Shown piece after piece: positions 7,841-17,090 of a DNA stretch of 17,910 nucleotides. A model generated the notes under the pieces. That model ran no database searches and was not told the origin of the DNA. It worked only from the letters and a program-made list of their open reading frames with translations. The DNA comes from Candidatus Micrarchaeota archaeon. GTDB lineage: Archaea > Micrarchaeota > Micrarchaeia > Norongarragalinales > Norongarragalinaceae. Location of the stretch: assembly GCA_037444485.1 (NCBI GenBank), contig JBBIMI010000016.1, positions 1 to 17,910 on the forward strand. The letters run 5' to 3'. A program made the translations under genes and the position numbers. Position 1 is the stretch's first letter. Each line of letters begins with the position of its first letter.

Positions 7841-8054
7841 ACAATTTGGAAACACTCAAAAAAAAATTTGTTTAAAACCAAAGAATTAAAACTATTAGAA
7901 CTGGAAAATGGTGGAAAACAAAAATTAAATTAAAACCAGAAAATAAAAAAAATTAAATGAAAATAAAAAAATTAAATTAAAACTCAAAAATAAAAAAAAA
8001 TTAGAGAGCGAAAATAAAAAACGGAAATAAAAAAATTTGGAGGGGCGGTTTGAC

Positions 8055-9119
8055 ATGGAGGACATCGTTAAAAGCGCTTTGGGGGCTCCTCGCCCGCAAA
8101 GCAACAGCGACAAGGAATACGAGGACATTAAAATCAGCGTTATCGGTGTCGGTGGAGGCGGAAACAACACCGTCAACCGCCTGCGTAGGCTCGACGTGAA
8201 GGGAGCTGAACTAATAGCGTGCAACACCGACCGCCAGCATTTGAACATGCTCGACGAATCCATTGCAAAACTACTCATTGGAAAAAGCGTGACGAAGGGA
8301 TTAGGCGCAGGTGGTTTTCCTGAAGTTGGAATGAAGTGCGCTGAAGTCGACCGAGCCGCAATCGAAAAATCGCTCAGCGGTTCGCACCTCGTGTTTCTCT
8401 GCGCTGGAATGGGTGGAGGCACTGGGACAGGCGCTGCACCAGTAATAGCTGAAGTCGCGAAACAACAAGGCGCAATCGTCGTTGCAATGGTGACTTACCC
8501 GTTCGCGCTTGAACGCGCGCGAGTGCAAAAAGCAGAAGAAGGAATCGCGCGATTACGCGAAGTTTCCGATTCTGTGATTATTCTCGACAACAACCGCCTA
8601 GTGCAAATCGTCCCGAACTTGCCGATGAATCAAGCTTTCCTGGTTGCGGACGAGATTCTCGCGAAAGCCATCGGCGGACTCGTGTTTACGATAACCCAAC
8701 CGTCGCTCGTAAACATTGACTTTGCGGACGTGCGCGCAATAATGGGACACGGCGACGTTGGAATGATTGCAGTCGGCAGCGGCAAAGGACCTGGAAAAGT
8801 GGAAGACGCTGTTGATGGAGTGTTGAAGAACCGCTTGTTGGACGTCGACTTCGCGGGCGCGCGGGGAGCAATCATCCACATTGCTGGCGGCGCCGACTTA
8901 ACGCTCGGCGACGCGATAAAAGCAGGCGAAATGATTACAGACCAAATGGACGCTAACGCAAACGTCAAGTGGGGTGCTAGATTGATTCCGGATTACGACG
9001 GCAAACTAGAAATCTGCGCTATAGTTACCGGCGTTAAAAGCCCGCAAATCGTTGGCAGAACCGCGCCTCAAAAACAACCAGAAAAAGAAGTCGGTTACGA
9101 CATCGAAATAATAAGTTAA
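8055..9119 (+). CDS. ftsZ: Cell division GTPase FtsZ, paralog A (FtsZ2-type)
   Basis: GVGGGGNN, NTD, GLGAGGFPEVG, tubulin signature GGGTGTG, T7 loop NIDFAD. TYPFALERAR and VPNLP are FtsZ2-like. GGAGG at 8039-8043 favours ATG 8055 over TTG 8037. Confidence 0.97.
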   Translation: MEDIVKSALGAPRPQSNSDKEYEDIKISVIGVGGGGNNTVNRLRRLDVKGAELIACNTDRQHLNMLDESIAKLLIGKSVTKGLGAGGFPEVGMKCAEVDRAAIEKSLSGSHLVFLCAGMGGGTGTGAAPVIAEVAKQQGAIVVAMVTYPFALERARVQKAEEGIARLREVSDSVIILDNNRLVQIVPNLPMNQAFLVADEILAKAIGGLVFTITQPSLVNIDFADVRAIMGHGDVGMIAVGSGKGPGKVEDAVDGVLKNRLLDVDFAGARGAIIHIAGGADLTLGDAIKAGEMITDQMDANANVKWGARLIPDYDGKLEICAIVTGVKSPQIVGRTAPQKQPEKEVGYDIEIIS

Positions 9120-9275: not shown

Positions 9276-9672
9276 GAAAGAACGAAAAAAAAAGAAAAAA
9301 CCATTAAAAAAAGAATCAATAAAAAAGGAAATTGTTAGAGAAAAAAAATCAATAAAAAAAAGAGAGTTAGTGGATTTCTTTAGTTTGCGCGATTCCCGCA
9401 ATTCGTTTTTTCGCGGAACGCAAAAAATAAAAAATTTGTGTTTTTCGTGAATGAAGACAAGCGTTTGTTTTTTTGCTTGCCCGAAAAAAAAGCTTTTCTC
9501 AAACCACTTCCTTAAAAAAAAGTGTTTTGAGAAAAAAATCAAACAATAAAAAAGATTCAACCCACCCGGAAGAACACTAAGAAAAAACAGCGTTTGAAAA
9601 CGCGTTGCTTCAACGCGGTGCAGCTGTAAAAAAGTTTAGTGCAACTTCCGATAAAACAGGAGAGTGAACAAA

Positions 9673-10755
9673 ATGAATGAATTAATTGCGGACGCGTTAA
9701 AGTATGGCGCGCAAAAAAACCTTGAACAAGAAGGCAAGAAATTTACGCCAGCCGAAGTACGCATTAAAGTAGTCGGCGTAGGCGGTGGAGGAACGAATAC
9801 AGTCACGCGCTTGCACCGAATGGGCGTAGAAAGCGCGGAAACCATTGCGATAAACACGGACAAAAAACACTTGGAAATCGTTGAAGCAGACAAAAAAGTA
9901 TTGATTGGCGCAACGATGACGCGCGGACTAGGCGCAGGTGGTTTTCCTGAAGTTGGAATGAAGGCGGCAGAGCAAGCTAAAGACAAGCTCGCGCAACTAC
10001 TCAGCAACACTGAACTCGTTTTCATTACTGCCGGCATGGGTGGAGGCACTGGGACAGGCGCTGCACCAGTAATAGCTGAAGTCGCGAAACAACAAGGCGC
10101 AATCGTCGTTGCAATGGTGACTTACCCGTTCGCGCTCGAACGAGCGCGGCTGGACAAAGCAGACTGGGGACTTGAAGCACTCCGCGAGGCTTGCGACACA
10201 GTCGTAATCATAGACAACAACCGCCTCGTGAGTTACGTCCCGAACTTGCCGATGAATCAAGCGTTTGCTGTCGCAGACACCCTAGTCGCGCGCAGCGTTA
10301 AAGGAATCGCGGACACGATAATGTTGCCTTCACTAATAAACATCGACTTTGCGGACTTGCGCATGATAATGGGTAACGCGGGCGTGGCCATGATTTCTAT
10401 TGGTGAAGCCAGCGGCACCGATAAAGTCGAGAACGTCGTGAAAAACACTCTCGCACACCCGCTCTTGGACGTAGACTACGCCGGCAGCAAGGGCGCGTTG
10501 ATTCTCGTCAACGGAGGCCCGCAGTTGACGCTTGGAGAAGCAGTGAAAGTCGGGGAAGGAATTACTGAAGCGTTCGACGACAACGCGTACGTCAAGTGGG
10601 GGGCGCGCATAGTGCCGGAACTCGGCGACAAAATCATGGTTACGAGCATCGTTACGGGCGTGACGAGCCCACACGTGCTTGGACACGAGGAACGCAAGCG
10701 CGCCGCTAAAGTAGAGAGCATGAAAGGCATCGCTTCAATAAGCTTTCAAGGTTAA
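9673..10755 (+). CDS. ftsZ: Cell division GTPase FtsZ, paralog B (FtsZ2-type)
   Basis: GVGGGGTN, NTD, GLGAGGFPEVG, GGGTGTG, PSLINIDFAD; TYPFALERAR and CDTVVIIDNNRL are FtsZ2-like. GGAGAGTGA upstream favours ATG 9673 (alternative GTG 9664). Confidence 0.97.
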   Translation: MNELIADALKYGAQKNLEQEGKKFTPAEVRIKVVGVGGGGTNTVTRLHRMGVESAETIAINTDKKHLEIVEADKKVLIGATMTRGLGAGGFPEVGMKAAEQAKDKLAQLLSNTELVFITAGMGGGTGTGAAPVIAEVAKQQGAIVVAMVTYPFALERARLDKADWGLEALREACDTVVIIDNNRLVSYVPNLPMNQAFAVADTLVARSVKGIADTIMLPSLINIDFADLRMIMGNAGVAMISIGEASGTDKVENVVKNTLAHPLLDVDYAGSKGALILVNGGPQLTLGEAVKVGEGITEAFDDNAYVKWGARIVPELGDKIMVTSIVTGVTSPHVLGHEERKRAAKVESMKGIASISFQG

Positions 10756-13176: not shown

Positions 13177-13211
13177 ATGCTGAAAGCATGGAAGCAGGGA
13201 AAGGTTACGAA

Positions 13212-14335: not shown

Positions 14336-16069
14336 TTACTTGTCAAGCCACTCGCGCTCAAAATCCTTGAACGCAAGCGCGTTAGCCACGTTCTTCTTCT
14401 CGACCCAGCCGCGGCGTGCAGTTGCAATGCCTAAGCGCATGTTTTCGAGTTGTTGCGTCGAATGCGCGTCGGTGCTTATCACCAGCGTCGCGCCTGCCTT
14501 GACTGCTTCACGCGCGTGAACGTCACGCAAGTCCAAACGCTCTGGCCACGCATTGACTTCCAAAAGCACTCTATTCTCGCGCGCTTTCTCGAACACGCGC
14601 GGCAAGTCGAGTTCAATGCCCTCGCGTTGATTTATTTTTCGTCCTGTCGGGTGCCCTAACGCGTGCACGAACTCGTTTTCAAGCGCGCGAAGCACGCGTT
14701 GAGTTTGTTTTTCTTTAGGCAAGTTGAACGCTGAATGCACGCTTGCCACCACGAAATCCAAGTCTTTAAGAACCTTGTTCGAGTAGTCGAGCGCGCCGTC
14801 TGGCTTGATGTTTACTTCACTTCCATGCAAAACGCGTATTCCAACTTCCTTTTCAACGCGAGCGCATTCCACAGCATGTTTTTTAAGGGCTTCAGGCTTC
14901 AAGCCGCGCGCGACCCCTAATCCAGGCGAGTGGTCGGTGACTGCGATGTACTCGCGTCCTAACGCGCGCGCGGCAACAGCCATTTCTTTAATCGAAAAAC
15001 TCCCGTCACTCCAATTCGAGTGAACGTGAAAGTCCCCGCGCGCGTCTCCGTAACCGACTAGTTTCGGCAGTTTGCCTGAAAGCGCTGCCTCTACTTCTCC
15101 AGCGTCTTCCCTCAATTCAGGCTCGATGAAAGGCAAACCTAATGCGGCGTAAACTTCTTCTTCAGTTTCGCCAGCAATTTTCTTGCCGGTCTTTCTCTGG
15201 AAAACTCCGTACTCGCTGAGCTTGAGTTTCTTTGAAACCGCGATTCTCCGAATCGCGATGTTATGGTTTTTAGAGCCAGTAAAGTATTGTAACGCAGAAC
15301 CGAAAGAGTCTCGCGGAACCACGCGCAAGTCACAATTCAAACCGCTTTCAAGAACAACGCTTGACTTCGTTTCACCGCGCGCGAGCACGCGCGTTACGAA
15401 AGGCAACGAAACGAAGGCGTCGGTAACGCGCTTCGCGTCAGCCGCGCTGGCGACTGCGGTGAGAATGTCGACGTCGCGAATCGTTTCCTTCATCCTCCGC
15501 GTAGAGCCTGCGACTTCAATTTCTTGAATCGACGCGCCGCACGCTTTCTTCAAGCCAGCGATTACTTGACTCGCGTCCGCAAGCGCGAAACCCACTGGAA
15601 CGCGTTCGCTCTTGCGCGCTTCAGCTTGCTTGAGCGCGAGAGACAAGTTTTCCTCGCTCTTGACGCCGAATCCTTTGAGTCCGCGCAGCTTGTGCGCCCG
15701 CAAAGCTTTCTTCAAGCCAGCGATGTCGCGCACTCCAAGTTTTTCGTACAACACTTTCGCTTTCTTGGGCCCGAGTCCCGCGACTGCAGAGAGTTCCTCG
15801 AATTTTATTGGCAGTTGTTTCTTCAAATCATCGTAGTACTTCAACTTGCCGGTTTCAATGATTTCCGCGATTTTCTTCGCGATGTTTTCGCCGACTCCAG
15901 GAATTTCTTTTAGTTCGCCGCGCTTGTAAACTTCTTCTACGTCTTCAGGCAGCGACTCTATTTCAAGCGCGGCTTTACGGTAAGCGCGGGGCTTCCACTG
16001 TACGCCCTGGAGTTCAAGCATGTCTGCAATGTCGTAAAAAATTTTCGCGACGAGCTTGTTTTTCGCCAT
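14336..16069 (-). CDS. polX: DNA polymerase/3'-5' exonuclease PolX (family X polymerase + PHP domain)
   Basis: AYRKAA lyase domain, HhH (IPGVG, GLGPKK), GSTRR...DVD and CDLR catalytic aspartates, YFTGS; PHP motifs HVHS..SDG, TDH, HPTGR, TDAH. ATG 16069 is preceded by GAGG (ORF track starts at TTG 16093). Confidence 0.96.
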   Translation of the reverse strand: MAKNKLVAKIFYDIADMLELQGVQWKPRAYRKAALEIESLPEDVEEVYKRGELKEIPGVGENIAKKIAEIIETGKLKYYDDLKKQLPIKFEELSAVAGLGPKKAKVLYEKLGVRDIAGLKKALRAHKLRGLKGFGVKSEENLSLALKQAEARKSERVPVGFALADASQVIAGLKKACGASIQEIEVAGSTRRMKETIRDVDILTAVASAADAKRVTDAFVSLPFVTRVLARGETKSSVVLESGLNCDLRVVPRDSFGSALQYFTGSKNHNIAIRRIAVSKKLKLSEYGVFQRKTGKKIAGETEEEVYAALGLPFIEPELREDAGEVEAALSGKLPKLVGYGDARGDFHVHSNWSDGSFSIKEMAVAARALGREYIAVTDHSPGLGVARGLKPEALKKHAVECARVEKEVGIRVLHGSEVNIKPDGALDYSNKVLKDLDFVVASVHSAFNLPKEKQTQRVLRALENEFVHALGHPTGRKINQREGIELDLPRVFEKARENRVLLEVNAWPERLDLRDVHAREAVKAGATLVISTDAHSTQQLENMRLGIATARRGWVEKKNVANALAFKDFEREWLDK

Positions 16070-16085
16070 TTTCGCGCGCCTCAAG

Positions 16086-16125
16086 GCAAGCAAGTTAAAA
16101 ATTAAGCAAGCAAGTTAAAAATTAA
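16086..16125. repeat. Perfect 20-bp tandem duplication upstream of polX
   Basis: GCAAGCAAGTTAAAAATTAA x2. Confidence 0.9.
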
Positions 16126-16215
16126 TATCAATTAATACAAACAAGTTATTAACAACCTTAACGAAAAACATTATTAAAGCGTTTTCTTTTTTTGAAAGCG
16201 TTTTGGGTTGGCGAA

Positions 16216-16281
16216 GGGCTCGTGAAGAACGAGGTAGCTACCGAATTTGTGGAATGTGGTGACTGTCCCAGTCTGAAGCCC
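16216..16281 (+). ncRNA. Box C/D methylation-guide sRNA
   Basis: Terminal stem GGGCT/AGCCC; box C GTGAAGA (16222-16228); 12-nt guide ACGAGGTAGCTA; box D' CCGA (16241-16244); box C' GTGGTGA (16256-16262); 10-nt guide CTGTCCCAGT; box D CTGA (16273-16276). GC-richer island in AT-rich intergenic DNA with CGAAAAACA-TTATTAAA promoter-like motif at 16162-16178. Confidence 0.8.
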
Positions 16282-16392
16282 GCTAAATTCCAGCTGATTC
16301 AAACCCCTGCAATTACAACCAAAATTAATTCCAATCAAAAATTATTAATTCAACCAAAAATTATTAATTCCAATCAAACCCGTTAATTTCGA

Positions 16393-17025
16393 TTAACGTG
16401 ATTCCTTCGCGTGAAAATAAACGAAGAAAATTCGTTGCGCGACCGTCACAACAGCAAGCGCTGTTGCAAGCGCGGTTGCGTACACGAGCAGTAAGTTGTT
16501 TGGAAACATCACAGCGGCGGCGAGTCCCAGCAACACTAGCGCGAGGCGCTCGCCGCGTTCAAGCAAACCACCCATCGCCTTAAGCGTTTTCTCGTCGGTG
16601 ACGACGCGCCGGTGGTCAGCGTAAGCGCGCACGAAGCTCGTCATGCAAGTTCCGAAAAACAACAACAACGCGAGCCACGCCCACGCTGGGACTAGGAAGC
16701 CTGGCAGGGGCGGCGTTAAAGCCATCAACCCAAACAACAACAACGCTTCATTGAACCTGTCGACAACCCCGTCGAGAAACGCGCCGAAAGCAGTAACGCG
16801 TTTTTGCGTTCGCGCGAGCGCTCCGTCGAACGCGTCGAGAAAACCAGCGGCCGCGAACAAGACGAGCGCCGCAAGCAGGCTTCCGTAAAACGCGAGCGCG
16901 GCGAATCCCAACACAGCGAAAACTATTGACGCGAGCGTGACGACGTTAGGCGTAAGCCAACGCGGGGCTCGCGCTGCCAACGCCTCAAGAAAACTTGTTG
17001 GTGCCCAGAGTCTCGCTTTCAACAC
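16393..17025 (-). CDS. CDP-alcohol phosphatidyltransferase (archaetidylinositol phosphate synthase / PgsA-like)
   Basis: TPN motif and family signature DAFDGALAR-x8-GAFLDGVVDR, then SFVRAYA and GLLERGER; multiple TM helices. Probable start GTG 17025 or TTG 17022 rather than 17085. Confidence 0.92.
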   Translation of the reverse strand: MLKARLWAPTSFLEALAARAPRWLTPNVVTLASIVFAVLGFAALAFYGSLLAALVLFAAAGFLDAFDGALARTQKRVTAFGAFLDGVVDRFNEALLLFGLMALTPPLPGFLVPAWAWLALLLFFGTCMTSFVRAYADHRRVVTDEKTLKAMGGLLERGERLALVLLGLAAAVMFPNNLLLVYATALATALAVVTVAQRIFFVYFHAKESR

Positions 17026-17090
17026 GAAACAACACGAAAATAATTTAAGACTAAACCAATTTAAAACTAAACTCGTTTTAAACAATACTC

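Follow-up and report, generated by a model that had tools for sequence, protein, structure and literature searches.

The question raised by this locus is whether a spacer in a small archaeal genome encodes a guide RNA for ribose methylation, and if so which ribosomal nucleotides it would serve. The window, by which we mean the whole stretch of 17,910 nt that was analysed, belongs to a Candidatus Micrarchaeota genome (G000; assembly 0.96 Mb, 95% complete), and the spacer in question (16094-16392) lies between two minus-strand genes, one for a PolX-type polymerase (14336-16093) and the other for a CDP-alcohol phosphatidyltransferase (16393-17085). We identify positions 16216-16281 of the plus strand as an unannotated box C/D sRNA gene. 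We further consider it highly probable that the RNA encoded there, with ends at 16208 or 16216 and at 16281 or 16286, directs methylation at the equivalents of Escherichia coli G2251 and U2438 in 23S rRNA, and that it is a circularly permuted orthologue of a dual-guide family found in its relatives.

The anatomy of the gene is largely that described in the initial annotation, in which four boxes, two guides and a terminal stem extending past a GAA bulge were listed; each of these elements is present at the positions given for it. The terminal stem is formed by GGGCT (16216-16220) and AGCCC (16277-16281), and its 5 bp are prolonged beyond the 3-nt GAA bulge (16213-16215) by a further 5-bp extension of TTGGC (16208-16212) with GCTAA (16282-16286), which juxtaposes boxes C and D as in a kink-turn. 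After a single C, box C reads GTGAAGA (16222-16228), retaining GA at positions 3-4 and at 6-7; its departure from RUGAUGA is the A at position 5, where any base is found in the 50 aligned relatives. It is followed by the 12-nt D' guide ACGAGGTAGCTA (16229-16240), whose predicted target is 23S helix 74, by box D' CCGA (16241-16244), a variant that also follows the same guide in the sister genus and several relatives, and by a D'-C' linker, ATTTGTGGA (16245-16253), of a sequence and length that vary among homologues. The D guide GACTGTCCCAGT (16261-16272), with the 23S P-loop as its predicted target, precedes box D, which is read directly as CTGA (16273-16276). Box C' is degenerate, and lacks A at position 4 whichever frame is chosen; the model alignment and the sister-genus homologues place it at ATGTGGT (16254-16260), with a D guide of 12 nt that matches the length of the D' guide, and not at GTGGTGA (16256-16262), the frame chosen originally, which leaves a D guide of 10 nt. 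Such a degenerate C' may weaken the internal k-loop, and hence the activity of the D guide.

Upstream of the gene, the TATA-like A/T-rich stretch ATTATTAAA (16170-16178, plus strand), read from the sequence, is a possible archaeal promoter element some 30-45 nt from the sRNA, and TTTAAA/TTTATA-like boxes occur at comparable distances upstream of the sRNA loci of relatives. Short private tandem duplications, perfect or near-perfect, flank the gene on either side (16086-16125, 20 nt x 2; 16324-16378, 19 nt x 2.8). Just 3' of it, ATTCCAGCTGA (16287-16297) resembles a second P-loop-guide end, shorter by 1 nt, together with a box D (TCCAG-CTGA); this could be a duplication remnant or chance, and it is not predicted by a simple duplication model.

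The locus stands out from the background of the genome when sought by its overall architecture. A whole-genome motif scan covering 961,727 bases on both strands, in which candidates had to combine NTGANGA as box C, CTGA as box D and a terminal stem of no fewer than 3-4 bp with internal boxes that scored 9 or more out of 11, returned the sRNA site as its single match, with none in a reversed-sequence control; a strict four-box regular expression matched nowhere in the genome because C' is degenerate. No Rfam family matched the window at gathering thresholds, and a permissive scan gave sub-threshold matches to two Pyrococcus sRNA families, sR22 and sR2, the first of which (RF01275) scored 17.5 bits (E 0.41) and so fell short of its gathering cut-off of 40 bits. 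A covariance model built solely from 50 relatives, with the window excluded, matched twice, at 16223-16244 (20.9 bits, E 1.7e-4 in the window) and at 16248-16285 (17.1 bits, E 0.0025 in the window). Free-energy folding did not select the terminal stem and indicated a stability that is not unusual (z -1.16); such an uninformative result is common where an RNA relies on proteins for its fold.

The same two guides are linked in 28 distinct sRNAs of relatives, every one of which has exact spacers of 12 + 12 nt, and an alignment across the class (A1) holds 50 distinct sequences; the boxes and both guides are conserved in many relatives. In a sample of 401 genomes from the phylum the linked two-guide pattern was found in 24, of which 23 belong to the same taxonomic order as the window and one lies outside it, and a reversed control gave none; a search for the P-loop half alone succeeded in 47 of 311 genomes with a completeness of 85% or more, against three control matches over all 311. 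The family accounts for 35 of the 49 generic C/D pattern matches in 61 genomes, and no other C/D sRNA is as widely detectable in the order as the P-loop/helix 74 dual guide. Conservation is limited to the boxes and guides, with linkers that range from 3 to 14 nt and not in multiples of three, while the terminal stem covaries over the 50 members: 68% of cells are paired compared with 43.7% in shuffled alignments, none of 500 shuffles being as high, and the covariation score is 0.571 against 0.214 in the shuffles, with slid controls far lower. In five class-level genomes the helix 74 pattern gave no match and the P-loop pattern then found two; no 23S was located for the f19 genomes, in which the helix 74-type guide is divergent (AAGAGTAGCT).

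Both guide cores, GTCCCAG for the P-loop and GAGGTAGCT for helix 74, are conserved in relatives, and where substitutions occur they mostly preserve pairing with the 23S targets. In the P-loop guides the positions opposite G2253, G2255 and G2256 are only ever U or C, both of which pair with G, an exception elsewhere in these guides being an A opposite C2254 in one of 28 sequences; guide position 11 (A) pairs with U2257 in relatives that have an A...U P-loop, a form seen in 13 of 27 P-loop-like matches in the examined loci (two of the 27 being unrelated CTGGGGC sites). By our own reading of the helix 74 guides, all three genomes with U2443 (G029, G038 and G046) carry A at guide position 10 and 16 of the 18 with C2443 carry G, the exceptions being G051 and G039. 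An A.C mismatch in this duplex is itself conserved, at position 9 in the taxonomic order of the window and at position 8 in family f21 (for which the 23S was checked in G117), and A opposite a target C recurs not only at helix 74 positions 2441 or 2442 but also at the D+5 nucleotide of a 16S-directed guide. We infer that the A.C mismatch and the P-loop G-U pairs are tolerated transitions (G to A, C to U) in the guides of mesophiles.

The window differs from most of its relatives in the arrangement of these parts. Usually box C is followed by the P-loop guide, D', a linker, C', the helix 74 guide and box D, and in the window the two halves are swapped relative to this; the covariance model matches in two swapped pieces, with model positions 35-56 at 16223-16244 and the 5' half of the model downstream, at 16248-16276. 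No full-length copy in the usual order was found in G000, the best other match scoring 14.1 bits (E 1.1). A swapped-order pattern was found in six of 68 genomes of the order, namely G000 and all five genomes of genus g10 of the same family, with none in the control, and g10-type swapped-order sequences are also present on two metagenome contigs; the arrangement is therefore not an assembly artefact. An earlier view that G000 held the only permuted copy was abandoned when a looser pattern found the five g10 copies, to which the first pattern had been blind because it required TGA directly before the guide and so could not see a C' of the ATGTGGA type.

The permutation is most simply explained by a single event in an ancestor of the G000 genus and g10. 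The permuted genes agree in having CCGA as D' and a terminal stem that a bulge of three purines divides in two. This stem is formed in g10 by GGGG-AAA-GCTC with GAGC-CTCC and in G000 by TTGGC-GAA-GGGCT with AGCCC-GCTAA, that is, with different bases in the same bulged form; the proposed stem extension is thereby borne out by compensatory changes in the sister-genus homologues. The former terminal box C lies internally in these genes and decays stepwise in the permuted clade: it is ATGAGGA in G021, four g10 genomes have ATGTGGA and G000 has ATGTGGT. The terminal motif stays near consensus. Since in many relatives the internal C'/D' motif is closed by a GCC-loop-GGC hairpin, the terminal stem GGGCT/AGCCC of the window looks like the hairpin of such relatives opened.

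The predicted targets were located in the organism's own 23S rRNA and numbered from the E. coli K-12 rrlH record, in which CTGGGGCGG starts at 2248 and GGGGATAACAGG at 2444 (the helix 74 region had no match when searched by BLAST in E. coli genomes). The P-loop of G000 reads GCTGGGGCGG (G-CUGGGGCGG-C), and positions 1-10 of the D guide pair with it (2247-2256) through seven Watson-Crick and three G-U pairs, one G-U pair more than the initial annotation gave. C16268, 5 nt upstream of box D, lies opposite the equivalent of G2251 as originally proposed, and within the 12.2-kb rRNA operon region no site other than the P-loop pairs with the D guide without a mismatch. Helix 74 reads AAGCUACCCCGG (2434-2445) and forms nine Watson-Crick pairs over D' guide positions 2-11 (at 2-8 and 10-11), nine of ten positions being paired; A16236, 5 nt upstream of D', lies opposite the equivalent of U2438. 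This second target thus also holds on the organism's own 23S, albeit in a duplex with a single internal A.C mismatch, of A16232 with C2442. Shuffled guides found an equally good site in 16S plus 23S in 113 of 500 cases for the D guide and 64 of 500 for the D' guide, and taken in G000 alone the pairing is weak and not statistically compelling; the support for it is comparative. There was no comparable site among 32 tRNAs, and the rest of the genome holds no perfectly complementary site for the D' guide. For the D guide there is perfect complementarity over 10 nt in each of the two ftsZ paralogues of the window (8037-9119 and 9664-10755), on the plus strand at 8421-8430 and 10048-10057, in both cases within codons of the GGGTGTG tubulin signature; by our own arithmetic the genome should hold about 1.8 perfect 10-mers by chance.

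The proteins on which such an RNA would depend, whose presence had been put forward as a check, are all encoded in the genome: fibrillarin (C1:22248-22889, 256.7 bits), a Nop5-type protein (contig C5, 169.5 bits for the Nop domain) and two proteins of the L7Ae family (101.1 and 65.6 bits), each above its Pfam cut-off. If the RNA is transcribed and behaves as the established mechanism of the family predicts, pairing of its ends would let boxes C and D join in a kink-turn, to which L7Ae would bind, followed by assembly of Nop5 and fibrillarin. The 12-nt D' guide would then pair with 23S helix 74, leading to methylation of the ribose of the U2438 equivalent, and the D guide would pair with the P-loop (helix 80), leading to methylation of the G2251 equivalent; both predicted sites are part of domain V and are found at the peptidyl-transferase centre. 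In evolutionary terms the RNA is the local orthologue of a dual-guide family that spans this DPANN class and, as sR22, the Thermococcales; the permutation in the common ancestor of the G000 genus and one sister genus would have turned an internal C'/D pair into the terminal C/D motif, and the old terminal box C into an internal C' that is now decaying.

Three other readings deserve consideration. The one closest to ours accepts a genuine C/D sRNA but holds that only the helix 74 (D') guide still methylates, with the P-loop guide serving as a folding clamp or decaying. The state of C' is its main attraction, in that both ATGTGGT and GTGGTGA lack the A of the second sheared pair and the box has passed stepwise from ATGAGGA through ATGTGGA to ATGTGGT in the permuted clade, and the three G-U pairs of the P-loop duplex point the same way. 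However, all six permuted genes keep GTCCCAG as guide core and CTGA as box D, which argues for continued selection on the pairing and on the D+5 register, and eukaryotic snoRNAs are known to function with degenerate C' boxes; we therefore think this reading decidedly unlikely. It is also conceivable that the true targets are other RNAs, such as the two ftsZ mRNAs, and that the 23S matches are coincidental. The ftsZ complements are perfect over 10 nt, and rRNA sites of similar quality were often found by shuffled guides; but chance would give about 1.8 such 10-mers and the two ftsZ matches amount to one paralogous motif. Conservation of the guides extends from this class to Thermococcus, with substitutions that track the rRNA targets, and the sites on which the two D+5 positions fall already have predicted guides in other archaea, according to the published predictions cited below. 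The chance that this reading is right appears to us to be very small.

Smaller again is the likelihood that there is no RNA gene here at all, and that the boxes arose by chance in an A/T-rich spacer or are part of a small overlapping ORF (64 aa, 16192-16386, plus strand). This ORF and the lack of an Rfam match at threshold are the observations in its favour, but it accounts poorly for a single genome-wide scan match against none in the control, for covariance model matches with E values of 1.7e-4 and 0.0025, and is contradicted by a pattern of conservation in which only boxes and guides are retained, linkers vary between 3 and 14 nt in steps other than multiples of three, and stems covary. We accordingly retain the dual-guide interpretation, in which both guides are predicted to be active on 23S rRNA.

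The nearest described system is sR22 of Pyrococcus and Thermococcus (RF01275), which carries the same dual guide cores, ..GGGTAGCT.. and then ..GTTCCAGT.., in the arrangement seen in the window, and whose Rfam consensus likewise has a D' of CCGA. Two Thermococcus metagenome-assembled genomes carry the dual guides in that arrangement, and in one of them helix 74 reads AGCUACCCUG and the guide CAGGGUAGCU, a perfect 10-bp match on the same uridine. The window differs from sR22 in the A.C mismatch to its own target, the degenerate C', the bulged stem extension and a score of 17.5 bits against a cut-off of 40, so that its likeness to the Rfam family lies in the two guide cores and the order in which they stand. 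The dual-guide family of its own class resembles it in guides, 12-nt spacers, box variants and GC-rich closing stems, and in partial synteny downstream of an ftsZ pair in G002 and G018, but has the halves in the opposite order. By parsimony, therefore, the arrangement in the window would be derived within its own family and not inherited from an ancestor shared with the Thermococcales, and the dual-guide family would have been permuted at least twice, here and in the Thermococcales.

Each target has also been predicted in other archaea. In the compilation of Dennis et al. (2015; PMC4644070) guides for the G2251 equivalent are predicted for three of seven archaea, and sR14 of Nanoarchaeum equitans is predicted on 23S alignment position U2712 (PMC4644070, supplementary file 1), which by our own count of the alignment block in that supplement corresponds to E. 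coli U2438. N. equitans sR14 and Methanococcus maripaludis sR106 both have a ..GGAGTAGCT.. guide of the helix 74 type, as in the window, but as listed there are partnered with other guides or with none. M. maripaludis sR106 is entered without a predicted target in the same supplementary file, perhaps because of the same A.C mismatch. The statement that guide sRNAs are little described in DPANN archaea is accurate outside N. equitans, and among the papers searched the only one to mention both DPANN and box sRNAs was a general review; it does not apply to N. equitans itself, for which 26 C/D sRNAs are reported (Breuer et al., 2021; PMC7994747) and sR14 is predicted on the same helix 74 uridine (PMC4644070).

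How the halves came to be exchanged is a matter on which we can offer a tentative and rather doubtful suggestion, namely that the swapped order represents a circular form of the guide RNA of which a copy became fixed, either because the RNA was circularised and copied to DNA and the original then replaced, or else because a local tandem duplication was trimmed at both ends; the family would then be a module with two-fold symmetry, either of whose kink-turns can serve as the point of opening, and would have been re-opened at least twice. Circularised C/D sRNAs are known from Thermococcus, Pyrococcus, Sulfolobus and Nanoarchaeum. In T. kodakarensis the circularised C/D sRNAs include one named Tko-sR22 (PMC9014305), possibly the orthologue of the Rfam family sR22. 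A search for an RNA ligase in G000 gave with PF09414 only a 28-bit match within a 612-aa ORF. The sR56 and sR57 sRNAs of Pyrobaculum are circular permutations for which circularisation and re-insertion have been proposed (Lui et al., 2018; PMC6009581); like the gene in the window they are permuted C/D sRNAs, but as described in that report they have other guides and 16S targets, and the two forms coexist as paralogues in each genome, in contrast to G000, where the permuted form is the only copy and marks a clade.

The genomic setting of the gene shares some features with those of its relatives. It lies downstream of an ftsZ pair, as in G002 (at 0.3 kb) and G018 (at 2 kb), with genes for ribonucleotide reductase, a cupredoxin and PolX intervening in G000; a GluRS gene follows the sRNA in relatives and is on another contig in G000. 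No synteny with the immediate flanks (PolX and CDP-alcohol phosphatidyltransferase) was found within 1.5 kb either side of the relatives' loci. The rRNA operon of G000 is on contig C12, where the 23S gene (C12:13659-20365) spans 6.7 kb because of insertions. Between the P-loop and helix 74 the distance is 1250 nt, compared with about 192 nt in relatives, and the two guide targets therefore flank an insertion, within which a 212-aa ORF has no Pfam match. More speculatively still, because the targets lie on either side of this insertion of about 1 kb, the dual guide could act as a clamp between the 23S segments that flank it while the rRNA folds or is spliced. A further 23S insertion, directly after GGGGGTAA of helix 74, holds a LAGLIDADG ORF (31.8 bits). 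In the relative G032 the dual-guide sRNA (C35:12466-12519, minus strand) is about 0.7 kb downstream of 23S helix 74 (13180-13192, minus strand), and is thus within or just after the 23S gene of its predicted target.

These genes would provide the first concrete methylation-guide RNAs for DPANN archaea of the Micrarchaeota type. The sRNA itself is new and has a clade-specific permuted architecture, although it falls within the already known C/D class, in which permuted families have been described from Pyrobaculum, at least as that work presents them. The equivalent of G2251 is a universally conserved P-loop guanosine whose 2'-O-methylation (Gm2251) depends on RlmB in bacteria and on snR67 in yeast, the bacterial enzyme acting as protein alone and the yeast guide being unrelated in sequence context. 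A dual guide for this guanosine and for U2438 of helix 74 is common to the class and to the hyperthermophilic Thermococcales, and since it is also so widely detectable, the two methylations may represent a core function for which genomes of less than 1 Mb retain their fibrillarin machinery. The permutation, which marks a clade and is accompanied by stepwise decay of the now-internal box, offers a natural experiment on which of the two box pairs is the more constrained. Standard predictors that forbid mismatches would miss targets of this kind and list their guides as orphans, as with sR106.

The sRNA in the window is probably not the sole representative of its class in G000. The idea that it was the only C/D sRNA in the genome was rejected when guide motifs of other families, taken from relatives, found at least two further C/D candidates, which the genome motif scan had missed because of their long linkers. 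One of these is on contig C12 (from about 19124 down to 19057, minus strand) and reads ATGATGA, 15 nt, CCGA, a linker that holds a private tandem duplication, ATGGGGA, TTGACGGACGGC and CTGA, with flanking segments able to pair (CCGAAACC with GGUUUUGG). It is on the 23S strand, inside an insertion of about 120 nt which, as judged by eye from conserved flanks, interrupts the 5' half of the 23S gene, and its guide family is represented in relatives by stand-alone genes on other contigs. Its D guide matches 16S at CCGCCCGUCA with one mismatch, an A at D+5 opposite a C that we take to be E. coli C1402. The other candidate (contig C14:12911-13030, plus strand) reads GTGATGA, a guide, CCGA, a GC-rich and repetitive linker of about 70 nt, TGACGA, AGACCTTGAGTG and CTGA; no rRNA target was found for it at one mismatch and one G-U pair or fewer, and it is homologous to a guide family present in G020, G026, G036 and G044.
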